Origin: a virus
Reading direction: 5' to 3' (one strand)
Length of the DNA: 64,000 bases
IMG/VR virus record: IMGVR_UViG_3300045988_078724
Coordinates: 31,033 to 95,032 of that record
Part shown: positions 3,001-22,700 of the stretch, in pieces
Layout: each line of letters opens with the position of its first letter
Numbering within the stretch: the first letter of the stretch is position 1
The notes under the pieces: model-generated
Database searches by the model: none
The model's input: only the letters and a program-made list of their open reading frames with translations
Told to the model about the DNA's origin: nothing
Translations under genes and position numbers: made by a program

Positions 3001-5622
3001 GTTATCAAGGTCATGAGTGGGAACCGATTCGTTTCTGTTGTAAAAGCTGATACAGGAGGCATAGATGGTATAAGTAAAATAAGAAGAACGGCTTTCAACA
3101 AGTGGAAGAAGGATGCCGGCCGGTCGGCTACCATCGGCGTCGGCACGCATGTTGTTGCCCAGACCCTTCCCGGAAGACCGGTGTTTAACATGAAGGTGAA
3201 CGGTCAAGGATATGGCCAGGTAGAAAATCTCCCCATTACCGAAAAAGGTGCTGAAAAAATATCTGATGTAGGATATGTATTAAATGGCAAAGTCGTGCTT
3301 AAGAACGGATCTAAATACACAGGCTTCCCATTTGCTTATTCTATATTAAATGACAAGGGGAATAATTACAAAAATGTAAGAGTTCCGGTAGTCGTCATCA
3401 AAGGTAAAAACGGTCTTAATTATCTTTTCCCAGTTAGCCTACGTTCTGTAGAATCAGAGGAAGGGCAGAAATGGATGTCTTTTATAGATATGCTGCTTGA
3501 ATCTGGTGATTCTGAATTGCTACAGATGGGTCAAGATGACATACAAGATCTTAATGCGTATCTAACCAAGTTAGGTCTTGATCCGGCTTCGTATCAAGTA
3601 TCGTATTTGAATCCTATTTCAGGGCTTAGAAAAGCTCGTGAGGCTATAGAAAAATTATCTACGGTTCCTGATGTTGTTAAGTGGGTAGAAGATGGAAGTA
3701 GGAGCGTGAAAGACATTGTGACGTCTGAAGTAGAATCTGGAATAGATTTCGAAGGTGAGATGTTTGTCGCTCCTAAGATCAGGATTCAGTTTGGTAAATC
3801 ATCTTCCAGCCCTAAGTCGCTTATAGAGGATGATCTTCCTTTCTCTGATGAGGGTAAGACCGTTACTTCTAAAGAAGACGTGGATGTTTATGAAGAGGAA
3901 ATGCCAGAGGAAGGGGCTGTCTGGGAGACTCAGCCGGCGCCATTAGCTCAGCCGGCTCCTGCGGCACAAGCTGCGCAGTCTTTACCTGGCAAGAAGCGTA
4001 CCTCCAGGAAAAACTTCTCTCTTATGTTAAACGAAATAGAATCTCATATAGAAAAAGAAGGATTGCCGTCTTATGCTAATATTTTTGATTTTATAGCAAG
4101 GAAGATTGTAGGAGGTGATTTGAGGTTTCTTCGTGAGAGAGGTAATCCTAAAAGCCTTAAGGAAGAAATGGGATTAGAACCTAAAGGAACAGTAGGTGAT
4201 AAAATATCCACTCCTTCCAGTAAAGGTGGTAAGACCTTAGAAGAATACGTTTCTTGGCTTCGTTCTCAAACAGATCAGGTGGTGGTTGATTATGTTGGGC
4301 CAAGATCTGACGAACAAATTATATCAGAGTTGAAAAACTTTTTGAAATATATTAATTTTGTTCCAAGCAAGGCTTTGAATTATTCTCTTAGAGTCAATGG
4401 CATGGATACCCTAAAAGAATATGGCACAAAAGAGGAAGTAGAAAAAATGGAATCTGATATCAATAGTTTGGTTTCTAAAGTTTTGCCTACGGTGGATAAT
4501 AAAACTGTAGAAGATGTTTCTACTGCAATAAAATCAAACAACTTGCCTGCCATATGGGAGCCCGTGGAAAGCCTTGATATGACAAACGAGGAAAAAATAG
4601 AGTTTTTGAATAACGTAGCAGATTTCCTTAGCGGCATACCAGAGTATGATGCTGTAGTGGAGTCTATAGAGTCAGAATCAGATAATATTTTAAATGATGG
4701 AAAAGAAGGAAGTGCAGAAGGCGGTGCAGTACGCACTGAGGAAGATGGCGATAAAAAGGGAGATGGAGAAGGCAAAGGACAATCCAGAACAAATGTCGAA
4801 GTTAAAGGAAATGTCGAATTACCTGGATCTGAAGAAGGAAGAGTAGATAACTATAGGAAGAACGGAGATAAGTTCTCTGACATTGCTGAAGTTACTTTAT
4901 GGCTACTTAGAAGGGCTGCCGGCATAACCTCTATCCCGGAAGGAGAAGAGGTTTATGTAGAGGGGGATGAGGTTAATAGTATTATGACCGATATGGAATC
5001 AAAGTATGGTATAGACACCATCAATCACTCGCATACGACTAAGGCTATAAGGGATCTTAACGGCGTATCAGGTTATAAAGTAGAATACGGTTTAACCTTT
5101 TTGACATACGATCCTTTTATTAGAATATCCAATCCAAGGAAAGGATCTAAGGCTGCGAAAGACGAACCTCGTATATCCGAAGAGTCGCTTACTCACATAT
5201 CAAGGGTGACAACCCCTTATTTCCTGTACGGCGGTGATGAAGCATATACATCTGTTCCGGCTAAGGTAGAACCTATACCGGAGAAGATAATGGGTCGTAA
5301 TGGCATTAAATTTGGTATGAGTGTAGTCGAGCTAACCAAATTAGGATACAAAAAAGCTGGTGGAAACTGGATATATAAATTCTATATGAACTCAGGTGTG
5401 TATGATTTGTATAATATCAGTACCGGTGAAGCGTTTAGGGCAAAACCGGATCTTGGAGTTAAGATAAGTTCCAGTGCATTCATCCGCTCTTTATCTCAAT
5501 CTGGTAGAAAAATACAAAATATGATGAGTAATATGAGCCAGGAAGAGATAGATAGGAATAAGAATCTCGTAGAAGGTTCTGATAATTCGGATTCGATAAA
5601 TGAGTTAAATAAGGAGTGTTGA
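1..5622 (+). CDS. giant virion/ejected-type protein, 5' partial (frame open from base 1; >1870 aa), coiled-coil and low-complexity segments
   Basis: Uninterrupted frame-1 ORF from window start to 5622; no stop upstream of the first ATG at 61; Ser/Glu/Asp/Lys-rich with QPAPLAQPAPAAQAAQ stretch; no catalytic motif recognised. Confidence 0.7.
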   Translation, partial: ESDFKDYYRKIYGRDPNAEEMAVFRNSNADVGSAIFAANMGIVGLSNWLLFGKYIGLGGKAIPGLEKKLNKHLFGLGTEVAKPGEMAIKITNPNIGQKIAGNVFNIMKRPVSEGLWEEGSQGAVQNTAEEYVKSRYDNVAMNGAVDVLDAISEGFKKQYTSKEGWTEIGIGAIIGSLFGMREGFFGVKEYSNSQILLERQVNEYNKASSNLNTAALNTLKKSMSLGPQVRSDAQSMTGKELDDAMFEKMSIDNQMGTLEDSAENFRQMIDMMPISEIAEANGMSLEEAKKYKDSIIDNYNNRLSDFRSAQSFAEDLIGDDSKIEFRKYVARNAFLGLQSESRMKDIASVIETLSGQPRVADALSTFSRLSDRARERAMAIRGIRSRIEELESEIEDLATRPRNVEGKDPQAESIQRKTKELGSLRTNYNNSLSELSTLIGKEFSIEELVSKTESVLSSPLSPISSQDVIEAYDTLVAFDDYFNVKSRQEKKFTAKDKAMRSLVNEYRRSLMDYRNMNNFLSKMLDKRFLAEENRGFSKALSSLWSTPYKGDDKVPDFAESNKVGEYDTDEVVDQAVSEGKISEDEAWTIKAFMHALDKVREDRMKEAEDDIKESPLTESVSDEDYEAAMDNPIMVPAVRQSIIDKLYTGNADLLTEREKDVYDKYKQDFDDYVSSLGDSPVNLIKSLSEKADRLTSPRSVYEDNKAIIDMAKSNLEPDQRKELDDAISSYVDIMNRRDKGEKVDEDKLADSVFTIEDLGQVGNITDLLPYIEQNRIIDKGRISESTLSNFGEDDANIDSLVNELDESDNTPGANIDSAQNPETLMVRRISNDGNERYEIAGLRADKFISSIKSLVPIQISSETNANGTKRYSLNIGGETATIIELPYHARWSIDKESARVLNRYTDVSIQDVGNSYSLVYKRLDSDELVPYRTGVGFGENEVDKIDQEALSSLKKGDKVNLEIDVNDTYNQSLFAEYNDAVQSGDKKRIESAENKLVSNMVIKVMSGNRFVSVVKADTGGIDGISKIRRTAFNKWKKDAGRSATIGVGTHVVAQTLPGRPVFNMKVNGQGYGQVENLPITEKGAEKISDVGYVLNGKVVLKNGSKYTGFPFAYSILNDKGNNYKNVRVPVVVIKGKNGLNYLFPVSLRSVESEEGQKWMSFIDMLLESGDSELLQMGQDDIQDLNAYLTKLGLDPASYQVSYLNPISGLRKAREAIEKLSTVPDVVKWVEDGSRSVKDIVTSEVESGIDFEGEMFVAPKIRIQFGKSSSSPKSLIEDDLPFSDEGKTVTSKEDVDVYEEEMPEEGAVWETQPAPLAQPAPAAQAAQSLPGKKRTSRKNFSLMLNEIESHIEKEGLPSYANIFDFIARKIVGGDLRFLRERGNPKSLKEEMGLEPKGTVGDKISTPSSKGGKTLEEYVSWLRSQTDQVVVDYVGPRSDEQIISELKNFLKYINFVPSKALNYSLRVNGMDTLKEYGTKEEVEKMESDINSLVSKVLPTVDNKTVEDVSTAIKSNNLPAIWEPVESLDMTNEEKIEFLNNVADFLSGIPEYDAVVESIESESDNILNDGKEGSAEGGAVRTEEDGDKKGDGEGKGQSRTNVEVKGNVELPGSEEGRVDNYRKNGDKFSDIAEVTLWLLRRAAGITSIPEGEEVYVEGDEVNSIMTDMESKYGIDTINHSHTTKAIRDLNGVSGYKVEYGLTFLTYDPFIRISNPRKGSKAAKDEPRISEESLTHISRVTTPYFLYGGDEAYTSVPAKVEPIPEKIMGRNGIKFGMSVVELTKLGYKKAGGNWIYKFYMNSGVYDLYNISTGEAFRAKPDLGVKISSSAFIRSLSQSGRKIQNMMSNMSQEEIDRNKNLVEGSDNSDSINELNKEC

Positions 5623-5978
5623 GTATGAGAAGGAGATTTTTTAATGCTGCGGATAATTTCGTGGGAGGATGTTATAATAAGTTATCCAATGAAGATATAA
5701 AAAGGCTTGGAGGAAAAAGACCTTATGTATGTCAGTTTAATAAAATTCATATACATATAGGACCTGTATTAAAAGATCATGATTCTGATGTTAGTTACAT
5801 AATGTTTAATAGTAATTGGAATTATGGTGGTTATGAATCTATGGTTTATAATCATAGCAATAATGGTATTTTTATATTAGGTGAAAACAAAATTGGTAAC
5901 ATAGAAGATCATATACAAGATCTAACATATTGGTACGAATATGATCCAAGCATTAATGAAAATTATTGTTATTTTTAG
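5616..5978 (+). CDS. hypothetical protein (120 aa)
   Basis: ORF overlapping the giant ORF stop by 7 nt; its TAG stop directly abuts the right-end hairpin of TnpB element 1. Confidence 0.4.
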   Translation: MLSMRRRFFNAADNFVGGCYNKLSNEDIKRLGGKRPYVCQFNKIHIHIGPVLKDHDSDVSYIMFNSNWNYGGYESMVYNHSNNGIFILGENKIGNIEDHIQDLTYWYEYDPSINENYCYF

Positions 5979-10303: not shown

Positions 10304-11188
10304 ATGGATAAAGTTTCTGTTTTTGAAAGTTCGGATTTTGGAGAGCTTAGAATTATTGTAGATCCAAAAGGAGATGTTTGGTTTGTGGCGTCAGATGTGG
10401 CTAAATCTCTTGGATATATAAATGCTAAAGATGCGGTAAAAAGACATGTAGATGATGATGATTCTATGCTTTTGCAAGTATCTGATAATCAATGGGGCGT
10501 AAAACGATCTATATTGAAAACCAGATATATAGATAGTATAAGAATAATTAATGAATCTGGTTTATATTCTCTTATATTATCTTCAAAATTAGAGTCTGCT
10601 AAGAGATTTAAGAAATGGGTAACATCTGAGGTTCTTCCTTCTATTCGTAAAACAGGAGAATATAAAACAAGTTCCGGTGGAAAGGGAATTTTGGTCCCTG
10701 ACTTTTCTAATCCGGCAGATGCAGCAAGAGCCTGGGCTGATCAATATGAAGCTGCTCAAAAAGCTATAGCCGAAAAGTCGCAGGCAGAGGCAGAGAAGCA
10801 ACAAGCTTTGAAAACAATAGAAGAACACAAGCCCGATGTAGAATTTGCCGAGTCTTTTAGGAAAGTAGACCATAACAATATGTGGCTGATTCGTGATATT
10901 GCAAAGAAGTTAGAGCAAAATGGTGTTATTATTGCTGAAAAGAATCTTCGCTCATTCCTTGAAGAAGCTAAATTCATGTTTAGGAACGGTCTTGGCAAAT
11001 GGGAGCTATATAGCAATGTTGTAGTTAAAGGGTATGGAGTGTATAGGTCTTATTTCATAGATAAGTATTCTGGTGATAGAATCAATCAACAAACCATATA
11101 CATGACAGGCTCCGGATATGAAGTGACCTTAAATGGTATAAAAGGAAAACTCAAAAATGTGTTTCTAAAATATGGCAAGTTTGCTTAA
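10304..11188 (+). CDS. Bro-N domain protein / phage antirepressor-like
   Basis: N-terminus FGELRIIVDPKGDVWFVASDVAKSLGY matches the Bro-N (phage antirepressor N-terminal) signature. Confidence 0.65.
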   Translation: MDKVSVFESSDFGELRIIVDPKGDVWFVASDVAKSLGYINAKDAVKRHVDDDDSMLLQVSDNQWGVKRSILKTRYIDSIRIINESGLYSLILSSKLESAKRFKKWVTSEVLPSIRKTGEYKTSSGGKGILVPDFSNPADAARAWADQYEAAQKAIAEKSQAEAEKQQALKTIEEHKPDVEFAESFRKVDHNNMWLIRDIAKKLEQNGVIIAEKNLRSFLEEAKFMFRNGLGKWELYSNVVVKGYGVYRSYFIDKYSGDRINQQTIYMTGSGYEVTLNGIKGKLKNVFLKYGKFA

Positions 11189-11363: not shown

Positions 11364-12095
11364 ATGGGTGGTGATAAAATCGTCCTTTTAGATGGAGCCG
11401 GGGCTAACGGCGGTGGTGCAGCAGCTACCAACGGTCTTCTTTCAATGATTCCCGGCATGTTTGCTAATTTGATAGGTGGTAATAAAATGGATCCTAATCT
11501 GGTGGCGGCTTTGATGAACGGTCGTAACAACCAGGACGGTTTCGGCGGGGCTAACGGTTGGTGGCTCTGGATAATTGTTTTGTTCTGGCTGTGGGGTGGA
11601 CGCGGCTTCGGTAACGGTTTTGGAAATGGCGGTGATTGTTGTGCCAATGGTTTGCCGGCTCAGTTGAATAACGATTACGGTCGTGAACTTTTGATGCAGG
11701 CAATTCAAGGTAATCGTAGCGCCATAGATCAGATTGCTTCTGCTTTGAACTGTTCTACTACTCAACTTCAAAACGCTATCTGCAACGTACAGGGTGCTAT
11801 TGATAAAGTAGCTGGTCAGGTAGGTATGACTTCTCAGGCTGTTATCAACGCAGTTCAACAACAAGGTTGTGAAATAGGAAATCAAATCAGCTCTTGCTGC
11901 TGCAATTTGAGTTCGTTGATCAATCAAAGCACTTGCCAGACTCAGGGAATGATTACTCAGCAAGGTTTTGATAACCAGCTTCGCACGTTGGAACAAACCA
12001 ATATCTTGCAGAACGGTCTCAACCAAGGTCTGGCTAACAATCGAGAGCAAGCTACAAGCCAATTCAATATCTTGTCTGCGAAACTTGACGCCTAA
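11364..12095 (+). CDS. Gly-rich membrane protein with Trp-rich TM segment and Q/N-rich, Cys-containing C-terminal half
   Basis: GAGANGGGAAATNG..GWWLWIIVLFWLWGGRGFGNGFGNGGDCC then QQQGCEIGNQISSCCCNLSSLINQSTCQTQ; antisense ORF 11442..12161 looks spurious. Confidence 0.5.
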   Translation: MGGDKIVLLDGAGANGGGAAATNGLLSMIPGMFANLIGGNKMDPNLVAALMNGRNNQDGFGGANGWWLWIIVLFWLWGGRGFGNGFGNGGDCCANGLPAQLNNDYGRELLMQAIQGNRSAIDQIASALNCSTTQLQNAICNVQGAIDKVAGQVGMTSQAVINAVQQQGCEIGNQISSCCCNLSSLINQSTCQTQGMITQQGFDNQLRTLEQTNILQNGLNQGLANNREQATSQFNILSAKLDA

Positions 12096-12101
12096 ACCGT
12101 T

Positions 12102-12374
12102 ATGATCAACGACAAATTCTGTCAGTTGGAAATGAGGGAAATGCAGAACACTATTGCTCAACTTCGTGAAGAAAAAGCGGCTTTGACAGCTTCGGCATTA
12201 TCTCAGCAACAAACCCAGAATATCGTTGGTCAATTACGTCCGACGGCCGTCCCGGCCTACCCCTCTTGTTCTCCTTACCAGGCTTATACTTGGGGACAGG
12301 TATTCGGAGGAGGTTGCTGCAATAACGGATGTGGATGTAACAACGGATGTTGCAATAACAACGCTGCTGTCTGA
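12102..12374 (+). CDS. small Q-rich protein with C-terminal Cys-Asn-Gly repeats
   Basis: ends GGGCCNNGCGCNNGCCNNNAAV; starts 6 nt after previous gene. Confidence 0.45.
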   Translation: MINDKFCQLEMREMQNTIAQLREEKAALTASALSQQQTQNIVGQLRPTAVPAYPSCSPYQAYTWGQVFGGGCCNNGCGCNNGCCNNNAAV

Positions 12375-12397
12375 TTTTATTAAGAAAGGAGGCTAAT

Positions 12398-12811
12398 ATG
12401 GCTTGTGTTTCTAAAATAGGATCGTTGTATGAGATGGTTACGAAGAATGTTATTGTCAGTACGACAAATACAGTCTTCGGTATTAACCCACGGGCTTGGA
12501 TCGCCCTTCCGTGTGAGGGTCTTATCCTTCTTAAGATAAGGCAAGTAGTCCCCACAGCCGGAAGTGCTCTACCGGTACAGATTGCGGTCCCGGCAAACAG
12601 CACAGTTTCAACAGTAGGAGCCGACACCTGTTGCCCGGTTACGGGAGTGAATGTCGTGAACCCTATTAACGTAGCTGTCACGGGTGCTGCTATGGTAAAT
12701 GGCACAGAACGCCTTCTGTACTTCAATAAAGTTCGTGGCGTGTTAAGATTAATGGATTGTTGTGTTCCGACAACAACAGCCCAGGCATCTGAAGTTAAAG
12801 CAGGTAAATGA
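12398..12811 (+). CDS. hypothetical protein (137 aa), Val/Thr-rich, Cys pairs
   Basis: ORF with plausible start context after aaggagg; followed by strong terminator. Confidence 0.5.
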   Translation: MACVSKIGSLYEMVTKNVIVSTTNTVFGINPRAWIALPCEGLILLKIRQVVPTAGSALPVQIAVPANSTVSTVGADTCCPVTGVNVVNPINVAVTGAAMVNGTERLLYFNKVRGVLRLMDCCVPTTTAQASEVKAGK

Positions 12812-12817
12812 TTTCAG

Positions 12818-12852
12818 TAGGGTGATGAAGATCATCACCCTATTTTCACCTA
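12818..12852 (+). terminator. rho-independent terminator
   Basis: agggtgatga-aga-tcatcaccct perfect 10-bp stem then attttcacc. Confidence 0.55.
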
Positions 12853-12861
12853 ACTAATATT

Positions 12862-13356
12862 TTGATCATGTTTTCAGATTTGAAGAAAGGGTTTCAGGTA
12901 CATACCCTTGATACTAATACAGTACCTAAATACGAATTGGGAAAGGTAGTAGCCGTATCCGAACCCAGGTATCTTCCTCCTCAGCCAGGTCAGTATCAGG
13001 CGATGCAGACCCGCGTGGTGGATCTGACGGTAGAGCTCACTGGCGAAACCAAGACCTATACGGTCCCGGAATCCCAGAATGTGGCTAAGGCTATGGGCAT
13101 AACATTATCTACCAGCATAGATCCGATTATGAACGAACTGAATGCTATAAAAAACACCAGTCAAGACATAATAAACAGCGTAGATGCCCATCGTGCCAAG
13201 ATAGAGGCTTGTGAATCTATATTAGAAGATATCAATCCGGCATTCAAGCAAACGAGAGAGCAGGATCGTAAAATAGCTGGTATAGAAAATAAGGTGAATG
13301 ACCTTACTGATTCATTCGAAGATTTAAAGAAGTTAATTGTAGAACGTTTGAAATAA
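12862..13356 (+). CDS. hypothetical protein (164 aa) with C-terminal coiled coil
   Basis: ORF; C-terminal heptad-like NELNAIKNTSQDIINSVDAHRAKIEACESILEDIN. Confidence 0.5.
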   Translation: MIMFSDLKKGFQVHTLDTNTVPKYELGKVVAVSEPRYLPPQPGQYQAMQTRVVDLTVELTGETKTYTVPESQNVAKAMGITLSTSIDPIMNELNAIKNTSQDIINSVDAHRAKIEACESILEDINPAFKQTREQDRKIAGIENKVNDLTDSFEDLKKLIVERLK

Positions 13357-13363
13357 GTATAAT

Positions 13364-13732
13364 ATGATAGTATATGATTTAAATTCAGGACACAGAGAAT
13401 ATCCTGGATATGACGAGATAGAAGACAGACGAGGTGGAGGCAGAGGCAGAAGCCGGCGTTCTGATGGGACGTACATGGGGTATGGTGGTGGTATTTACGA
13501 CCATTACGGTATGCATGAGAAGATGAAGGAAATGGAAGAGCGCGAAAACGAGCTGGAAGAAAGGGAAAGAAGGCTCGAAGAGCGCGAACGTCGTCATGAA
13601 ATGGAGGACCGGGAATACCGGAGGATGGGTTACGAATCCTACCCGACCGATTACTATGGAGACGACAGATACTACGGTGACGGACCTCAGATGCGTAGAG
13701 GTCGCGGACGTGGCAGAGGTCGTTCTTATTGA
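13364..13732 (+). CDS. RGG/RG-rich low-complexity protein with central ER-repeat helix
   Basis: RRGGGRGRSRR ... ERENELEERERRLEERERRHEMEDREYRR ... RRGRGRGRGRSY; ends in TGA that is in frame with the next ORF. Confidence 0.5.
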   Translation: MIVYDLNSGHREYPGYDEIEDRRGGGRGRSRRSDGTYMGYGGGIYDHYGMHEKMKEMEERENELEERERRLEERERRHEMEDREYRRMGYESYPTDYYGDDRYYGDGPQMRRGRGRGRGRSY

Positions 13733-13825
13733 GGAGCAGACGCAGAGGATCCAGCTTATCAGAAATATGTAGATACTTACGGCTACCATTTTTCTAATGC
13801 TCTCGCTGATGAGGCGGTAAAGAAG

Positions 13826-14119
13826 ATGGTCAACGTCGATGGATCCAAGAGGATCTGGAAGCAGCCGGAAATAAAAGATATTTTTGAAAAGTGCGGAGCG
13901 AAGAAGCCGGATAAAGCGACATGGGGCGATGTCCAATATGTCTTTGCAATGTACTATTCGGATGGTTTTCCGAAGGTCTTCAAATGTGAGAACGAGTTGG
14001 TGAAAGCTACGTTAATGTATTTGGATGATCCGGATGCTCCCGAAGGAGTAGCCTTTATAAGATGGCTTGCCGTGCAAGATTACCTCGGCGAAAAAATAAA
14101 CTGGAAGGATCTGACCTGA
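13826..14119 (+). CDS. hypothetical protein (97 aa); same frame as preceding gene across a single TGA
   Basis: ORF; the 31 codons between TGA (13730-13732) and this ATG are stop-free and protein-like. Confidence 0.4.
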   Translation: MVNVDGSKRIWKQPEIKDIFEKCGAKKPDKATWGDVQYVFAMYYSDGFPKVFKCENELVKATLMYLDDPDAPEGVAFIRWLAVQDYLGEKINWKDLT

Positions 14120-14277
14120 GATCCAGATCCAGGTCCTTCCGGTGGTGCGGGAGCCATAGTAAAAAATATGATTCCCGCATTCCCGTTTTTCCCGTTTGGA
14201 AAAAAAGGAATAAAAATATTATACCGGTCGGCGGGCAATAGAATACCCGTGGCCGGTTTGTTTCACAGAACTTTTTT

Positions 14278-14460
14278 TTGGATATGAATATAGCACACGA
14301 ATCTAAATCGAATAAAACCCCATTGTATTTAATAGGAGAGTTGATTGGCGTACCGAATACGGTTATGGACTCAGCATTGCATGAACTGAAAGATAGAATA
14401 GACAAAGACCCTAAATATAAAGATGTTAAAAATTGGCTCGAATCTTTACCCAAGATCTGA
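14278..14460 (+). CDS. hypothetical small protein (60 aa)
   Basis: ORF followed by strong terminator. Confidence 0.35.
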   Translation: MDMNIAHESKSNKTPLYLIGELIGVPNTVMDSALHELKDRIDKDPKYKDVKNWLESLPKI

Positions 14461-14489
14461 ACCTATTTTTTTTCAATACCAGGCCCGAT

Positions 14490-14525
14490 GCGATTTTAAC
14501 GTATCGGGTTTTTATTTTAAATCTA
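14490..14525 (+). terminator. rho-independent terminator
   Basis: cccgatgcg-attttaa-cgtatcggg 9-bp stem followed by tttttatttt. Confidence 0.6.
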
Positions 14526-14568
14526 ATTAATTCATGAATGTCGTACTTTTGTTGAAAAAGTATTCTAT

Positions 14569-14796
14569 ATGGAAAATAAGGAAGATTACGTTGGTTACGA
14601 AGATCAAGAACTGTGTAACCGGTATTACAAAGAGGCTGAAGCCATGAGGCAAAAGCAGGACTGGTCTCGGCTTAGGGCTGTCCCTGCTCCGGCCAAGGGA
14701 ACGCCATCGCCCGGCTGGGGTCAGCTTGGACGTGGAAATGATGTCCGTGTTAAGTACGTTAGCATCAATTCAGGATTAGGAGGGGACAGATTATGA
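14569..14796 (+). CDS. hypothetical small protein (75 aa)
   Basis: ORF; stop overlaps next start (ATGA). Confidence 0.35.
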   Translation: MENKEDYVGYEDQELCNRYYKEAEAMRQKQDWSRLRAVPAPAKGTPSPGWGQLGRGNDVRVKYVSINSGLGGDRL

Positions 14797-15008
14797 CTGT
14801 AGAAGAATTGGCTAATAAAAGATACAGTGGCGAATTTGTTTTCATGCTTGGTCATTTGGAAGGTATAACAAGATTCGTTTTTGAATGTTTTGATCCCAGA
14901 CCTGATCACGAAGGTAAAAATACTTATATGGTTTCCTATTTTGATAAGGGACTTCGTAGAAGAGATGTGGTAGATGTGCCATGTTATATGAATGTTTTAG
15001 CAAAATAA
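14793..15008 (+). CDS. hypothetical small protein (71 aa)
   Basis: ORF translationally coupled to previous. Confidence 0.4.
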   Translation: MTVEELANKRYSGEFVFMLGHLEGITRFVFECFDPRPDHEGKNTYMVSYFDKGLRRRDVVDVPCYMNVLAK

Positions 15009-15028
15009 ATTAAAATATTGTAAATATC

Positions 15029-15664
15029 GTGGTTAGAATCGCATATTTCGGAACCGATGGCTGCCCTGGTCATTACGCTATTCCGATACGAGGTAAATTC
15101 ACAGAAGAGGATATTAAGGTAATAGAATCTGTAGATTGTGATGATTTCTATAAGGTATTTGACGTCATGCGTTTTAAGATAGCTGAGTTTAAAGGATGGA
15201 CGATATTGGGGATCCCGGCAAGCTTAGACGATCATAGACCTGGAAGCAAAACCGTTATCTTCATAGAGGGTGAAGCTAACGAAGCTGATTTTATAGAAGT
15301 CACACAAGAGTATTCTTTTCTTAAAAATAAGGTAAAGAAACTTGCCGAATTGTATCATGATGGAGAATGGCTTGCGACTGGTAAATTGAATCAAGATCCG
15401 CCTACTAACAAGGAGCGGTTTCAATTTACGTTAGACAAGGATGATATTATTAACATGATTAGGGGAGTCGATTTAGATCCTTATTCTGATGTGGCGAATG
15501 AAATGGAGAAAATCGGATTGGGATCATCATCTGATTCTTCATATGAGGGTCCCACATGGTCTTGGTTTGTTAACAAAGTAGAACTTTGGCAGAAGAATAA
15601 TGTATGGGATAGTTTCTCCGCTGAGTTTTTGTGGGGTTTGTATTGTAGGATAAAGAAAGTATAG
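15029..15664 (+). CDS. hypothetical protein (211 aa), GTG start
   Basis: ORF; preceded by gtggttaga motif also found before 15711. Confidence 0.45.
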   Translation: MVRIAYFGTDGCPGHYAIPIRGKFTEEDIKVIESVDCDDFYKVFDVMRFKIAEFKGWTILGIPASLDDHRPGSKTVIFIEGEANEADFIEVTQEYSFLKNKVKKLAELYHDGEWLATGKLNQDPPTNKERFQFTLDKDDIINMIRGVDLDPYSDVANEMEKIGLGSSSDSSYEGPTWSWFVNKVELWQKNNVWDSFSAEFLWGLYCRIKKV

Positions 15665-15722
15665 TAACAATTAATTTAAAACAAATCATGGAATTAAAAG
15701 ATTTTAAAATGTGGTTAGAGTA

Positions 15723-16550
15723 ATGACAAAAGAAGAGTTCGAATCAACAATCGAAGAAGATATTAAATTCGTTGAGGGATTCAAGAATTTCTTAAAACAT
15801 GATGATGCCACGAGGATAGTAGAGCATATCAAGTCTGTGTTAGAAGCATCAGTAGATTACTACTATCCTAATCATCCTGAAGTAGAATTTGAAAAAGATT
15901 TTAATATACAATACGATGTCAATAATATCTTGAACAAATACGGCCACACCGAAATGGGTATGTATAAAATACAGCTCTATATAGAGAATATTTTGGGTAG
16001 TATTCAAAACAAGAAGCCTGTAGACGTGGGAGAAGTCTCTGACGGATACCACACTTTCAATGAATTGTATCGGTATCGCATGTTGTATAACGCTGCCTTC
16101 TTTAATCTATTAGCCAGAAGCGGACAGGTTGAAGTTTGCAAATCAAGGAGACACAGCGACGGAGAAAAATGCTTCGGTTCTGATGATTGGTTTATTGTGA
16201 TGGCGATCCTACCTACCGGTCAGGTATCTAATCACTATGAAAGCAAATACTGGGATTTGTTTGATGTTCCTGAAAGAGAAACCGCTTTCGAATACGATGG
16301 CCATACACCAAATGAAGCCTCCGACAGACTTGAAAAGTATCTCAAACTGCCTCGTCATGGCATGACATTCGAACAGGCTTTAGAACGGCTTAAATTAGGT
16401 CGTAAGATAAAAAGAATCGATTGGGGTAAAAAGTATATCTGTATGTTTGACGTAAATATATTGATGATAGATACAGGTCAAAAAGTAGCATCAAATTGGA
16501 ATCCAACCGAACATGATATTATGTCTAATGACTGGGAGATTGCGGGATGA
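15723..16550 (+). CDS. two-domain protein: unknown N-terminal domain fused to C-terminal DUF2829 / Tad2-like (Thoeris anti-defense 2-like) domain
   Basis: C-terminal ~80 aa MTFEQALERLKLGRKIKRIDWGKKYICMFD...ASNWNPTEHDIMSNDWEIAG matches the DUF2829 pattern (M.F.EAL..LK.GKK..R..W ... AS...D.LA.DWEI) as I recall it; ATG at 15723 preferred over listed GTG 15711. Confidence 0.5.
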   Translation: MTKEEFESTIEEDIKFVEGFKNFLKHDDATRIVEHIKSVLEASVDYYYPNHPEVEFEKDFNIQYDVNNILNKYGHTEMGMYKIQLYIENILGSIQNKKPVDVGEVSDGYHTFNELYRYRMLYNAAFFNLLARSGQVEVCKSRRHSDGEKCFGSDDWFIVMAILPTGQVSNHYESKYWDLFDVPERETAFEYDGHTPNEASDRLEKYLKLPRHGMTFEQALERLKLGRKIKRIDWGKKYICMFDVNILMIDTGQKVASNWNPTEHDIMSNDWEIAG

Positions 16551-16822
16551 GTTTGTTTGTATGTTCAAAGTGTGGCTGTATAGATAATACAGCCACATCA
16601 TGTTACTGGGCTATTATAAGACCTTGTAAGAATCGTATTTACGATAAGTCGCTAAAGGGATATGAAGGCAAGCCTCTTTGTTCTGAATGCGCCGCTATTG
16701 AATATGATAAGGATGATAAACTGGTGGTAGTTCCTGGAACGTGGCATGGTAAGTTCAAGAAAGAATGGCCTACTGAAGAAGAAAAGAAGCATATTGGTAA
16801 AAACGGTATTTTAAATATGTAA
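16547..16822 (+). CDS. zinc-ribbon protein (91 aa)
   Basis: CSKCGC ... CSEC cysteine pairs; start overlaps previous stop. Confidence 0.45.
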   Translation: MSLFVCSKCGCIDNTATSCYWAIIRPCKNRIYDKSLKGYEGKPLCSECAAIEYDKDDKLVVVPGTWHGKFKKEWPTEEEKKHIGKNGILNM

Positions 16823-16825
16823 ATT

Positions 16826-17131
16826 ATGTGTGATAAGGAAATTGTTGTATGCGCAGCTATATGGGTTCAAGATCACAAGAACAAGCCTCACGGTCCAGTA
16901 AATATACCATCCGGAACCGTATTTTGTGGATTGAGGCATTGTTCCATAATATCGCAACTTGCGGCATACGGTATAGCCCATAAAAACCGCAGTGTTCAAG
17001 GATTTTTGACAAGCAAGAACCGGTTTTTAACAAGAGAGGAAGCGTCTGAACTTGTTAGAAACAATAATCAGGAAATGGTAGTAGATAGGAGTGCCATTAG
17101 AGAACAGTTGTATTCAGAAGATTTGTATTAG
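16826..17131 (+). CDS. hypothetical protein (101 aa)
   Basis: ORF, conserved-looking core IVVCAAIW..GLRH..QGFLTS..RFLTREEA. Confidence 0.45.
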   Translation: MCDKEIVVCAAIWVQDHKNKPHGPVNIPSGTVFCGLRHCSIISQLAAYGIAHKNRSVQGFLTSKNRFLTREEASELVRNNNQEMVVDRSAIREQLYSEDLY

Positions 17132-17148
17132 TGTATTAAAATGTTTAA

Positions 17149-18339
17149 ATGAAACTTGTTGAAAGACATATAGTTAAAGACAACTGGTTTGAGGATATAT
17201 GCCTCAAATCTGGTTTGTTGTACAATTATGTTCTTTACAACATTCGTCAAGGAGTCTTTTCTGGTAACTACTTAAAGGAGTTTGATTTATCAAACAAACT
17301 TTGCAAAGAAAACCAATTTGATTTCAGGAATTTACCTAATCATGTTTCACAGCAGGTGATTAAACAGGTATTTAAAAACATAAAATCCTGGATGAGATTA
17401 AAGAAAGATTTTGAAAAGAATCCTTCGAAATACGGTAATCATCGTCCTCATCTTCCTTCGTATAAGAAGGGCAAGAAACAAAACATGGTTGTTTTTACTA
17501 ACTGTGATTGTAGGATAAAGGATGATGGTTATATCCATTTTGTCAAAAACACAATTAAACCGATCAAAACAAATGTAAAGAAAGATGAATTAAAACAAGT
17601 TAGAATCATACCTCAAGCCACCTGTTATGTAGTAGAGGTAGTTTATGAAAGAAAGGAAATTGATCTTGGTTTAGATAAAGACAATTTTCTTTCGATTGAT
17701 TTAGGATTGAATAATTTATGTTCATGTATTAGCAATGTAGGATTAATTCCTTTCATTGTAAACGGACGGATTATGAAATCATTTAATCAATGGTACAATA
17801 AGAAGAAAGCTAAGTTGATGTCTTTTGTTGGTGATAGAGGATCTTCAAATAGGATAAGAAGAATCACTTTGTTTAGAAATTGTTGGATAGAAGACAAGTT
17901 GCATAAGATAAGCAGATATATTGTCAACTTCTGTAGATCAAACAACATAGGAACAATCATCATCGGATTAAATAAGGAATGGAAACAGGAAATCAATATT
18001 GGTAGGCGAAATAACCAACATTTTGTTTCTATTCCTCATTCAAAGTTAATAGATAAGATTGTTTACAAAGCAAAGTTATTAGGAATCAATGTTGTTATTC
18101 ATGAAGAATCCTATACATCAAAGATAGATCATCTTGCTTTTGAACCTCTAAAGAAACAGGAATCCTACTTAGGAAAAAGAAAGAAACGTGGATTGTTTCA
18201 AAGTTCAATTGGAAAACTGATCAATGCAGATATTAATGGATCAATTGGAATAGCAAGAAAAGTAATTGGTGATTCTTTTATTGGAAAGATAATCGATAGT
18301 GGATTTGTGTTTAATCCAATTAGAGTAAATACTTTGTGA
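17149..18339 (+). CDS. tnpB: TnpB-like RNA-guided nuclease (IS200/IS605 OrfB family), 396 aa, diverged paralog of 6024..7286
   Basis: [10 protein letters not shown] (RuvC-I), [49 protein letters not shown] (RuvC-III); ~50% identity by eye to TnpB-1. Confidence 0.85.
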   Translation: [396 protein letters not shown]

Positions 18340-18412
18340 TACAAGGTTGAATCTAATAAATAAAATGAGTAATTTTAATAACATTTGTATTAACTAAAAA
18401 AAATAAAACAAT

Positions 18413-18763
18413 ATGGGATTTATAATCAGAAAGTCAATATTTTATGATATGATGGACGGCAATCAGTTAGAGTATGAATTTGACAACATAAATTTAGATC
18501 ATATCACATTTAAAGGTAATGGTAAAGAACCTTTTTCATTTAACAGAGTCCTTGTTGAAAATTTAATTGAGACATTTGAGACTATGCAAGATATATACTC
18601 TGATAATTACGGAATTAAGGTTTATACCGGTAATTGCATAATTCAACTGAATGTAAATCCAAAGAACTTAAGTGAATCCTTTTTTGACGTATATGATAGA
18701 GATGGGATGAAATTGATATATAGCATACAAAATAGTATCTTGAAAGAAATGTTTGTCATATGA
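18413..18763 (+). CDS. hypothetical protein (116 aa)
   Basis: ORF. Confidence 0.45.
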   Translation: MGFIIRKSIFYDMMDGNQLEYEFDNINLDHITFKGNGKEPFSFNRVLVENLIETFETMQDIYSDNYGIKVYTGNCIIQLNVNPKNLSESFFDVYDRDGMKLIYSIQNSILKEMFVI

Positions 18764-19077
18764 TTACTAAACAAGATATACAAGCAGCAGCATCGTATAT
18801 TTTCCGAAGCAGTTTTGTCTCGGAGGACCAGGCAAGGAAAGCAATGGTAAAAGCCGGCAATAACGCTACCAAGATCCTCGTCAAGACCTTTAGAGGCAAG
18901 TTGTTCAAGAAAGCTTTTGAAAGAGCCCGTAGAGGAAAGGATATCAGTTCTTTTGAAAGACAGGAAAAAGAAAGTGGTTTCAATTTTCTACATAATCCTA
19001 ATAATGGTCGTATGCAAAGCGGTCATATTATAATAGATGGAATTGGTCTGTTTAAACAAATAATTCATGAAAGGTAA
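18760..19077 (+). CDS. hypothetical basic protein (105 aa)
   Basis: ORF overlapping previous stop. Confidence 0.45.
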   Translation: MITKQDIQAAASYIFRSSFVSEDQARKAMVKAGNNATKILVKTFRGKLFKKAFERARRGKDISSFERQEKESGFNFLHNPNNGRMQSGHIIIDGIGLFKQIIHER

Positions 19078-19240
19078 AAAAGTTGATATTCGTTTAGGCA
19101 GAGGTCTGGCGAATCAGATTAAGATAAACAAAACCATTCCAGTGTCTCATAAACCAAAAGAAGAACGTCGAATGATGTTTATTTGTGGTGATGATATTGC
19201 TTCTCTTATAAAGCGGTTTGAAAACGAATCAAAGTAATAT

Positions 19241-19278
19241 AAAGTCGGACATGTGTCTTGTCCGACTTTTTTTATATA
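19241..19278 (+). terminator. rho-independent terminator
   Basis: agtcggaca-tgtgtct-tgtccgact 9-bp stem followed by ttttttt. Confidence 0.65.
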
Positions 19279-19286
19279 TTTGTGGC

Positions 19287-19610
19287 ATGGCAAGAGGTTA
19301 TTATTGGATACCACAAACAGATGAAACGTTAAATGGCAGAAGCTATTACGTGGCTAAGATAGTAGGAGATATCACGTTTGATACTAAACGAAAAAGAATC
19401 GTATTTCAAGCTGATAGGTATTTCCCTGTAGGATCTGTTTTCCATTTTACGCACAATTGCTTCAATTATATCATAACTTGCCGACTTCGTAAGCCGGGGC
19501 TTTGGTTTGAAGCCAGGAGAGAGGATTCGGGCCCTATTTGCCCTGAAGATATTGAGCGCTTTGAATCGGGAAGGTTTATACACCGAGATGGGTACATGCA
19601 TTACATATAA
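19287..19610 (+). CDS. hypothetical protein (108 aa; listed ORF trimmed to ATG after terminator)
   Basis: Listed start 19218 would include the terminator hairpin; in-frame ATG at 19287 (MARGYYW...). Confidence 0.4.
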   Translation: MARGYYWIPQTDETLNGRSYYVAKIVGDITFDTKRKRIVFQADRYFPVGSVFHFTHNCFNYIITCRLRKPGLWFEARREDSGPICPEDIERFESGRFIHRDGYMHYI

Positions 19611-19694
19611 GCTGAACTTGACGATTTTTCGTCAGATTATAATTTTTTTTTTCATATTATTTTTAAGCCATCAGACTGAGAAGTTAGGTGGCTT

Positions 19695-19735
19695 TATTTT
19701 TTATGATATGCTTTATTTTTAACTACCTTTGTCTC
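19695..19735 (+). promoter_or_regulatory. Bacteroidetes-type promoter candidate for giant ORF 2
   Basis: TACCTTTG (TAnnTTTG -7 consensus) at 19724-19731, 24 nt upstream of ATG; -33 region TTTA rather than TTTG. Confidence 0.35.
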
Positions 19736-19754
19736 ATAACAAAAATGTTTTATC

Positions 19755-22700
19755 ATGGTATCAACGTGTATTATTAAAAGAGATAATAAAAAGAAAGTTG
19801 TTTCTGTCTCTACCAGATCAGGGGACAGGTCTATGTTGTTTGATAAGATAGCATCTATTCCTCTTATGGAGAACAGGGAACGGGCTACTACTGTTTTTAA
19901 AACCGTATTTTCTAATAAGTTCTTAAAGGATTTTGGCGACTGGAGAAAGAGAGTGCCTATCAACAAACCGGCTTATAATAAGGTTAAATCCAACATTGAT
20001 CTTATTCCGGAAGCTTATAGAGAAAGGGTACTGGATAAGGCTTCTAAGATGAGTAATCCTGTTCTTGTATCAAAATCAGATGCAACTTATGGGATTCAAG
20101 AATCAGGCTTCGGATTCTATAGCCAAGATCTGGGTGATAATATTATGTTGGTGGATGCTATGATCCCATCAAGTATTTCCGTACCGGAAGAACCAGGAAT
20201 AGACGCCGGGCAGTATTTACAAGATGCTATATCTTCGGACTTCACTCCCGTATCTGTGGTACAGGATAAGGGTGTTAATTATATGGTTATAAAAGACGGT
20301 CTTAAGATATTTAGCCCAGAAGAGCTACCAGAAACAGATTCTAATCCTGTGGGTGTAACGTATCAGACTGGAGAGCCTCGTTTGTTTTTCATGAACGATC
20401 GTAGTCAATTATTTGAAGATTACGGAGAAGCTCTTCGCTCTGGCGGGAATGATATTAGAATAGGATTCTTATCAGGAACCGTTCAAGAATCTACCGTGGA
20501 TGGCGTGGAAGACATTACTTACAAAGCTGGAAAGTATGTTCTTAATAATCCCAAGTCTTTTATACCGGTCATGACCGCTTCTGCTTCTACTTCTTTATCA
20601 ACAAAAGGCGGGATAATTAACTACCTTATAAAGAAAGGTCTTTTGTCAGGATCTAAGATATTCGATTCTGAAACAAGAAGCTATTATCTTACAGGAGAAG
20701 GTTATACAGGACAAATTAGACTTTTCAATTCAGCCTTATCATACACCGAGCTCCGTAATCATTTTGGTTCCGATGTTTCCATGAACGACCAAGGTATGAT
20801 AACCATAAGCTCGTTGGATAACAGTAAGGTAACTATGAGACTCGCCACCGGAGGAACGGAAAGGGTTAGCAAGGAACAGATAAAGAACGATCTTAAGTCA
20901 GGAAGATACAATGAATTGGACGCCAAGTACGATCATTTTGATGCGCTTGTAGTTTCATTCATATTAGAAGACAACGATCTTTATGCTGATACTAAAGCTA
21001 AGATCGTATCAGATTATAGCAGGCAGGAACGTGACCAACGAAATTCTATTGTCGAGATACTGAAAACTCTTGGCGTTAGCGTCATAGGTATGACCGACTA
21101 TATAGAGAAGTACCAAACCAAATACGGGCACGAACCTTCTGCTAAGGCATTGGCGGATATTGCTAATAACGTAATAGCAGTTGGTGAAGATGCTACTTTA
21201 TCTGATTTAGTAGAAGAAACAGCCCACTTCCTTGTAGAGGCATACAGAGATCAGAATGCTGTTGAGGCTGTTCTGCAAGATGTAGAAGGTACGGAAGAGT
21301 GGAACCAGTATGCAGGTCAGTATTATAATACATACGGTAAGGTATATGAAGGAGCTGAGCTTGATAATGCGGTTAGGAGAGAAATTCTTGGAAAGATCCT
21401 CGCCAGGGAGATGCAGACCGGCACAGCACAGGCGCCGGTAGAGCCCACCTCCTTCCTGGGGCGCGTCCGGCAGCTTCTCTCTGGAATCGTGAGCTGGCTT
21501 AAATCAGCTTTATCAACCCAAAGACAAGATTTGAATAACGTTATTAAAAACATTCGTGATCTTGCCATTACTGACATAGATAAAGGATTTGACACTTCTC
21601 TGTTAAAGGATAATGACTTTACATTATACTCCCTTTCTTCTATGAACAAGAACAAGTTTCTTGAGTCTAAGATCCTGGCATTAAGGAAAACATTAAGAGA
21701 CTTACGTCAGATAAGCTCTGATAGGGCTGTAACTACGTCTATGACCCTTGCGCAGCTTAAGACCATAGAAGATAAGATAAATAAAGTAGAGACCGAAATA
21801 GACAAGAATGAGATGGCGGCTGCCATGAACAGCATGATCTCTACAGCCGAAGCTCAGGTCAGATACTTAAGCAATGTGGTGAACACCATCCTTCATGGTG
21901 ATACCAAAGACGGTAAGCTTCACTTCAATACCAATGATCGAAAGAACGTAGATATTATCAACAATCAGGTTCTTCCGATCATGAACGATCTTCGAGGATA
22001 TATCCGTAACAGAAGTACCGAATTTGATGAACGTGAAAAGCAGGATTATACAAATAGGATCAATACCGTCATTGCCGACATCAATGGTATTCAGTCTGAT
22101 ATTAAATCAGTACAAGACCTTGATGAAAGTACGTTGCTTGATAAGTTAATGAACGAACTTCATGTGCCGGCAGATAAGGTAAAGAGAGTAAAAGAATTTT
22201 TCGACAAGGTTCAACACGATGTTTCTTGGATAAGTAGGTGGTTTGGTATATTAGAGCATTCTTCCAGTCCGTTCAATAACGCTCTTGGAGCTATGATTGC
22301 CAAAGACAATTACAATGCGATGGTGAATGCCCAGCCCGCCATATCCGACTTCCTGGCATATGCTAAAAAGCATGGTTTTAACAAATCTGAATTTGAAAAA
22401 CTGCTTCAGAAAGTAGACGGCAAAACTTCTAATTACCTTCGTAGTGCTCTTGATATGGCTAAATACGATCGTAATAAGAAGCTGGCGCAGATGCGAGCGT
22501 TTGCGACTGCCATGAACATAGAGATATCAGAAGAAGAAATTGGTGATGTGGTTGACAATAACCGTAATTACGTATTTAAAAGAGAAGTAGTTGACAAGGA
22601 TGGAAATACGGTTACTGAAAACGCTAAATTCAAACCATCGTCTGATAGGGTTAATACCGATATTTTTACCATCGAGCAGGAAAAGATCTATACGGAACAG

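Follow-up and report, generated by a model that had tools for sequence, protein, structure and literature searches.

The window analysed here, a stretch of 64,000 nucleotides from a crAss-like human-gut phage genome, codes for a 279-aa protein whose C-terminus resembles the Tad2 family, and this raises the question of which parts the protein is built from and whether they could act together against host immunity. In a Pfam search two domains were found, WDGH (PF25311) and, following it, a Tad2-like domain (PF11195), and the gene product is best described as a modular accessory protein of the phage in which WDGH is joined to a minimal Tad2-like domain (Table 1). Neither the 279-aa protein nor the neighboring genes gave a match in searches of NCBIfam and PADLOC, and the PHROGs matches of the protein were to families of unknown function only. 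Phage csAssE-Sib (OR575929.1), which was used for comparison, is 95.7% identical to window positions 12000-20000 over 72% of the length, and its orthologue is already labelled "protein of unknown function (DUF2829)" in GenBank.

The gene was further compared with 80 related IMG/VR genomes, which were obtained by a viral-contig scan and all belong to the same clade as the window. In these relatives the protein starts with MELKDFKDVVRVMTKEEF, while the window gene starts differently: at ~15703-15710 it shows a 1-nt deletion (TTTAAAGATG in the relatives, TTTAAAATG in the window). Because this deletion puts the usual start of the relatives, ATG 15688 (MELKDFK...), out of frame, translation of the window gene probably begins at GTG 15711 or ATG 15723, with an N-terminus that is 8-12 residues shorter. 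The deletion could be real or a homopolymer sequencing error. As the window gene carries this indel at its 5' end, and as a few relatives have the parts as separate calls (for example Tad2-only ORFs of 62-66 aa, or a frameshift of the type found in the related locus L038), it was considered whether the fusion itself is an artefact, in which adjacent genes were merged by frameshift, assembly or gene-calling error. However, the frame is continuous in 74 of the 80 independent related genomes, in csAssE-Sib and in distant lineages of different sequence, and the two parts are connected by a short, conserved linker. So far as sequences can tell, these population data refute an artefact, which is effectively excluded.

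Table 1. Features of the WDGH-Tad2 gene with their positions in the window, and equivalents of SPO1 Tad2 residues in the encoded protein.
Feature	Position	Strand	Evidence or outcome
Whole ORF, 279 aa from GTG 15711	15711..16550	+	ORF list, sequence; stop TGA 16548-16550
Alternative start of the ORF, likely	ATG 15723	+	Start-codon comparison with the 80 relatives
N-terminal region, residues 1-104, predicted helical	15711..16022	+	Pfam/NCBIfam, AF2, family comparison
In-frame insertion of ~43 aa, residues 58-100	15882..16011	+	blastn against csAssE-Sib, alignments
WDGH domain (PF25311), residues 107-209	16029..16337	+	Pfam
Minimal Tad2-like (DUF2829) domain, residues 218-279, helix alpha1 and antiparallel sheet	16362..16547	+	Pfam, phmmer, Foldseek
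SPO1 Tad2 W25, here W238			Kept
SPO1 Tad2 W73, here W263			Kept
SPO1 Tad2 D79, here D269			Kept
SPO1 Tad2 I63, here I253			Kept
SPO1 Tad2 T65, here T255			Kept
SPO1 Tad2 S76, here T266			Conservative change
SPO1 Tad2 N26, here G239			Lost
SPO1 Tad2 T78, here H268			Changed
SPO1 Tad2 D67, here Q257			Changed
SPO1 Tad2 H71, here S261			Changed

The C-terminal ~62 residues are a genuine Tad2-like/DUF2829 domain. PF11195 matched residues 218-277 with an E-value of 6.9e-11 and 43 bits (curated cut-off 25 bits), covering profile positions 1-72 of 73. The full-length AF2 model has a mean pLDDT of 61.9, but residues 220-279 reach ~90 and adopt the Tad2 fold. In a Foldseek search with this model the 17 best PDB matches were all Tad2 structures, with E-values down to 1.9e-4 and target TM-scores of 0.5-0.75; they include SPO1 Tad2 (8smf, 8sme, 8smg, 8wje), ModTad2 (9eib, 8v3e), AcrIIA7/HgmTad2 (8kbi) and SptTad2 (8wjd). 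An earlier note on this DNA had placed the C-terminus in this family and had proposed an HMM search and a full-length structure prediction as checks, both of which agree with the assignment; the Tad2-like part that it put at ~80 residues is shorter, with ~62. Used as the sole query, the minimal domain retrieved nothing beyond calls of this one locus that were split or truncated and nearly identical.

To map functional residues, the domain was aligned to 8sme by phmmer, and residue roles were taken from the literature (10.1101/2023.05.01.538930; PMC10680739). With Tad2 (SPO1 gp34.65, HgmTad2/AcrIIA7, ModTad2) the window protein shares the fold, helix alpha1, the sheet, the C-terminal D-W motif and the equivalents of W25, W73, D79, I63 and T65. 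In SPO1 Tad2, W25, W73 and D79 belong to the gcADPR pocket and touch the ligand, while N26 makes a polar phosphate/hydroxyl contact (10.1101/2023.05.01.538930). The equivalent of N26 in HgmTad2 is N22, and a W21A/N22A double mutant is binding-defective (PMC10680739). In the window copy N26 and T78 are replaced by Gly and His, respectively. Furthermore, Tad2 is a stand-alone protein of 89-170 aa, whereas the window copy forms only the C-terminal part of a larger protein. The window copy lies in a phage accessory-gene region, and its phage belongs, like that of HgmTad2, to the Bacteroidota-infecting gut group.

The largest difference concerns the insert between beta2 and beta3, which comprises 2 residues in the window protein compared to 24 in SPO1 Tad2 and 41 in HgmTad2. 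Residues 36-59 of SPO1 Tad2 carry helix alpha2 in this segment, which builds a V-shaped dimer (10.1101/2023.05.01.538930), and residues 32-72 of HgmTad2 form the cyclic-dinucleotide pocket (PMC10680739). The window copy has neither the alpha2 dimer interface nor the region of the cyclic-dinucleotide/cUMP pocket. Judged from its sequence, a domain without this insert cannot build the canonical tetramer by the same contacts, and it cannot contain a cyclic-dinucleotide pocket. With the insertion absent and N26 lost, the idea of an expanded sponge that would take up cGAMP-type signals through its Tad2 module, raised in the earlier note, is unlikely. SPO1 Tad2 is a homotetramer with inter-protomer ligand pockets, and the protomers that form a pocket are the "non-dimeric" pair packing along helix alpha1 (10.1101/2023.05.01.538930). 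Since helix alpha1 is present in the model of the window protein, an ADPR-type pocket could survive in the minimal domain. This insert-less Tad2 offers a natural way to find out on which parts of Tad2 oligomerisation and the capture of an ADPR signal depend. A 4-aa indel (IVES or IAES; window 16450-16460, residues ~247-248), polymorphic in the related loci L009-L088, falls exactly at the beta2-beta3 turn, the site of the canonical long insertion.

The same pattern was observed when 77 distinct Tad2 domains fused to WDGH were compared. Of these, 75, 70 and 72 retain the equivalents of W25, W73 and D79, respectively, while the rest of the domain diverges strongly. The N26 equivalent is Asn in only 23 of the 77. 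The beta2-beta3 insert spans 0-38 residues, with the window copy among the shortest, and the long-insert copies P0113, P0114 and P0102 carry the canonical WNG motif. Between the window and csAssE-Sib the Tad2 segment shows 0 synonymous and 4 non-synonymous differences, which are too few sites for a dN/dS value.

Upstream of the Tad2-like module, PF25311 matched with an E-value of 5.7e-36 and 123 bits (cut-off 27 bits), covering profile positions 1-96 of 97. The stretch GYHTFNELYRYR...WFIVMAILPTGQ, quoted in the earlier note as sequence of a domain of unknown function, lies inside this WDGH match (residues 107-209). The 200-aa N-terminal domain proposed there is therefore uncharacterised, as stated, but not a single domain: it consists of two parts, a helical region and the named WDGH domain. 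The partner of the significant PF11195 match is not a well-known enzyme.

The window protein is a full-length, high-scoring member of the WDGH family (PF25311; PHROGs 3392, 3769, 21846). Across 148 sequences 22 residues are invariant, all of which are present in the window protein: D111, G112, H114, F116, E118, L119, Y120, R123, N132, K144, S145, H148, F155, F161, L167, G170, Q171, N174, H175, Y176, D196 and H198. It differs from the family in the name-giving motif, which here reads YDGH (Y195-D196-G197-H198) with Tyr in place of Trp, and in its surroundings, with a clade-specific helical region on one side and a Tad2 module on the other. Two similar motifs, DGYHTFNE and DGHTPNE, each mark the N-terminal end of a helix. 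When 1.84 billion representative proteins were searched exhaustively with HMMER, there were 3,706 WDGH matches at E≤1e-3, of which 2,213 remained at E≤1e-10 and 415 at E≤1e-30. The domain is 60-75% identical within proteins of 110-640 aa that are otherwise <50% identical, and stand-alone WDGH proteins of 110-140 aa exist. WDGH was found in 197 complete phage records, where it is annotated "hypothetical" every time. Among the carriers are the Listeria phages A511 (gp21) and P100 (gp128), Tsamsa-like and Bastille-like Bacillus phages, Lak megaphages, P22-like Salmonella phages (ST64T, ε34, phage L Orf186) and phages of Streptococcus, Lactococcus and Klebsiella. Compared with csAssE-Sib, the WDGH segment has a dN/dS of 0.09, and it is far more strongly conserved than the Tad2 part of the protein. 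Given the stand-alone proteins, the 3,706 clusters, the ~22 invariant residues and this low dN/dS, WDGH behaves as an autonomous unit.

In the full-length AF2 model, which was built from 26 close homologs, WDGH reached a pLDDT of only 33-56. When the domain was modelled alone from an alignment of 117 sequences, the pLDDT rose to 94.3 with a pTM of 0.83. The model shows a small α+β unit in which a three-stranded sheet is combined with one long and two further helices. A profile search of PDB sequences gave no structural relative of WDGH, and a BFVD search returned other WDGH proteins only. No match was obtained for WDGH in PADLOC and no mention of WDGH or PF25311 was found in the literature searched. 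Invariant His, Asp, Lys and Ser residues are so dense in WDGH that a catalytic or small-molecule site may be suspected. Several more specific assignments were considered and dismissed. A Cys/His zinc site formed by C143, H148 and C154 was rejected, as C143 and C154 vary across the family. The window protein does not show two H-x-T/S motifs on a 2H fold, as an Acb1-like 2H phosphoesterase would. Lockin and Acb5 (Tal et al.) differ from WDGH in fold description and in phage distribution. The likeness of WDGH to the 2H phosphoesterase Acb1, to Apyc1 and to Acb5 is one of functional analogy only, in that WDGH is small, has invariant His residues and accompanies sponge modules.

The region in front of WDGH showed no match to a Pfam or NCBIfam family (residues 1-~105) and is predicted by AF2 to form four helices with a pLDDT of 54-79 (residues 1-104). 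It is shared by none of 147 diverse WDGH representatives and confined to close crAss-like relatives. The in-frame insertion of ~43 aa that distinguishes the window from csAssE-Sib lies within this region and is carried by 58 of the 80 related genomes. An Acb4-like nature (PF13876) of the N-terminal modules of the WDGH-Tad2 relatives P0113, P0110 and P0085 found no support in Pfam and PDB searches. PF13876 did not match the window protein or the N-terminal modules of its relatives even at E≤1, and PDB sequences likewise gave nothing.

The combination of WDGH and Tad2 is present in 98 of the 120 best homolog clusters, compared to only 3 of the 147 diverse WDGH representatives, which shows the fusion to be typical not of WDGH overall but of this gut-phage clade and a small number of others. 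It is kept with few substitutions in 74 of the 80 related genomes, and the exact Tad2 sequence of the window is the commonest variant (25/80). Together with the existing GenBank label, these frequencies do not agree with the unusual architecture that the earlier note had expected. In 6 of the 80 genomes the Tad2 part was lost while WDGH stayed intact, either by a deletion beside an inserted RRXRR+HNH endonuclease gene, by a stop after GMTF or by a frameshift; since WDGH is kept in these genomes, the two modules are separable.

This separability bears on the possibility that the Tad2-like domain is no longer a sponge but an appendage for oligomerisation or ligand sensing, with the real activity residing in WDGH. 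Tad2 is natively oligomeric, WDGH is much more conserved than the Tad2 part and persists where the latter is deleted or interrupted, and with N26 and the entire beta2-beta3 insert lost the window copy stands at the extreme minimal end of the 0-38-residue range. The lost part is, however, exactly the dimerisation helix of SPO1 Tad2, which does not fit a role in oligomerisation. W238, W263 and D269, whose counterparts contact the ligand in SPO1 Tad2, are near-invariant across divergent fused copies, and since the majority of WDGH proteins do without a Tad2 domain, WDGH assembly would be independent of it. An appendage is thus unlikely, albeit worth keeping in mind.

The fusion recurs in distant lineages, where the N-terminal modules differ and the Tad2 domains are of the canonical WNG kind with a long insert (for example P0113, P0114 and P0102). 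In P0110 and P0116-P0120 the architecture is N-module–WDGH–PF21825–Tad2; a Pfam search found no PF21825 in the window protein. In Pfam no other domain is fused to Tad2 as often as PF21825, which corresponds to Sequestin, a validated 3'cADPR sponge that was discovered via its fusion to Tad2 (10.1101/2025.07.12.664507). As relatives of the window protein carry this arrangement, WDGH is, at the level of protein sequence, physically linked to two validated sponge families. Tad2 is also frequently fused to the sponge Acb4, and such a fusion blocks Thoeris and CBASS (10.1101/2025.07.12.664507). The fusions Tad2-Acb4 (Pasteurella phage Pm86) and Tad2-Sequestin (Tal et al. 2025) resemble the window protein in that Tad2 is joined to a small, mostly phage-borne module that also occurs alone. 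They differ in that both of their domains are validated sponges, whereas here Tad2 is the validated family and WDGH the candidate partner. Compared to known sponges, WDGH is much more conserved and has enzyme-like invariant polar residues. WDGH is not mentioned in Tal et al. 2025 (10.1101/2025.07.12.664507).

The reading that we tentatively prefer, as the best one available, is that the window protein counters host defence and that its Tad2 module is still able to capture an ADPR-type signal; this is quite possible but short of probable. It would then be a counter-defence protein of a crAss-like gut phage with modules that work independently. In the minimal Tad2 domain the aromatic and acidic residues at the core of the pocket for ADP-ribose signals are kept, as is helix alpha1, and the domain might pair up and sequester a TIR-derived ADPR-type signal (Thoeris-like), though not cyclic dinucleotides. 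WDGH would bind or chemically modify either a small molecule of universal occurrence or a host target that is conserved, for which NAD/ADP-ribose-based immunity is a plausible setting. The result would be a two-way attack on host immunity, as in the documented Tad2-Acb4 and Tad2-Sequestin fusions. Counting against an anti-defence protein of this kind are the replacement of N26 by Gly together with the changes of T78, D67 and H71, the missing alpha2 dimer helix, the presence of Tad2 in only 3 of the 147 diverse WDGH representatives, the loss of Tad2 with retention of WDGH in 6 of the 80 relatives, and the lack of a PADLOC match, of a mention in the literature searched and of a structural analogue for WDGH.

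A further step would be to regard WDGH itself as an anti-defence enzyme or sponge of a new fold that acts on NAD/ADP-ribose-derived or other nucleotide immune signals, which would make the window protein a two-pronged inhibitor. We consider this doubtful. If true, thousands of phages would carry this anti-defence family, with A511, P100, the P22-like phages and Tsamsa among them. One new sponge family, Sequestin, was already discovered through its fusion to a known sponge, and the WDGH family is much larger than most anti-defence families and also more strongly conserved. A role of WDGH in manipulating immune signalling would add a major family, would give a function to orphan genes of several model phages and would possibly reveal a new signal or target. 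Tad2 fusion proteins as such are already known, and the WDGH family is the more interesting part.

The other partners of WDGH are heterogeneous and comprise Bro-N, sigma-70 region 4, Myb-like, YccV-like, FaeA-like, GNAT and RRXRR domains; the WDGH-Tad2 relatives P0007 and P0052 have an N-terminal Bro-N domain of their own. Such partners, DNA-binding domains included, do not point specifically to immune signalling. They would be expected if the protein were a shuffled regulator or host-takeover factor of the Bro-N/KilA type, in which the target of WDGH is DNA or a conserved host protein, with no more than an incidental link to immune signalling. The presence of a Bro-N/KilAC antirepressor gene 4.5 kb upstream and WDGH fusions to RRXRR nuclease segments are in line with a regulator, and the 60-75% identity of WDGH across phages of different bacterial phyla would fit a universal macromolecular target. 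Yet each of the DNA-binding partners occurs once only among 148 proteins, and at least one of the WDGH-RRXRR fusions (P0094) probably reflects an endonuclease gene inserted beside the WDGH gene. In this clade it is two validated sponge families that recur as partners, and the invariant His, Asp, Lys and Ser set seems more like a small-molecule site than a DNA-binding surface. We judge a regulator to be unlikely.

In cultured phages WDGH is found among small accessory genes. The 186-aa WDGH protein of the P22-like phages (ST64T, epsilon34, phage L Orf186) is encoded between the coat gene and gene 4 (gp56 in ST64T, L002 3821-4381), which is a typical moron position inside the late operon. In the Bacillus phages Nate and Tsamsa the WDGH gene is directly followed by a NADAR gene (PF08719, E=8.9e-39). 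In Nate (gp134-gp135, L089 3348-4548) there is an overlap of the two, and in Tsamsa an endonuclease gene is inserted between them (gp135-gp137, L091 1836-3566). The adjacency of NADAR, an ADP-ribose-processing protein, hints weakly at an immune link of WDGH, since it comes from a single phage lineage. The neighborhoods of stand-alone WDGH genes contained only small unannotated accessory genes and a dUTPase and were thus uninformative, and neither a stand-alone Tad2 nor a Sequestin neighbor was seen in those examined.

The window gene itself lies in an accessory island riddled with mobile endonucleases, and the locus is a hot spot for them, with HNH genes in 9 and TnpB genes in 9 of the 80 related genomes. 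In 9 of the 80 relatives an RRXRR+HNH endonuclease gene is located directly downstream of or inside the Tad2-like coding region (among others in L007, positions 4416-5636, and in L022, L061 and L077); in three relatives the insertion is accompanied by deletion of the Tad2 C-terminal part and of the next gene. In the window a TnpB-like gene (396 aa, OrfB_IS605 and a Cas12f1-like TNB domain; ORF 17149..18339, +, window 17131-18379) is inserted relative to csAssE-Sib and occurs in only 9 of the 80 related genomes. Further upstream, the Bro-N and KilAC (ANT) antirepressor-type protein is encoded at 10304..11188 (+).

Directly upstream of the WDGH-Tad2 gene lies a 211-aa ORF (15029..15664, +; window 15020-15655) without a match in Pfam, PHROGs or PADLOC, which is missing in csAssE-Sib and present in 57 of the 80 relatives. 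In the related locus L008 the WDGH gene has a chimeric N-terminus, as the first ~30 codons of this ORF are fused to it. Downstream, a 91-aa Cys-rich protein (CxxC...CxxC, phrog_11861; 16547..16822, +) is encoded, which is found in 64 of the 80 relatives. Its start overlaps the stop codon of the WDGH-Tad2 gene (ATGA), which suggests translational coupling of the two genes. It is followed by a 101-aa ORF (16826..17131, +) that corresponds to phrog_839 and whose orthologue in L007 is tagged PF26092 (T4_Y16D).
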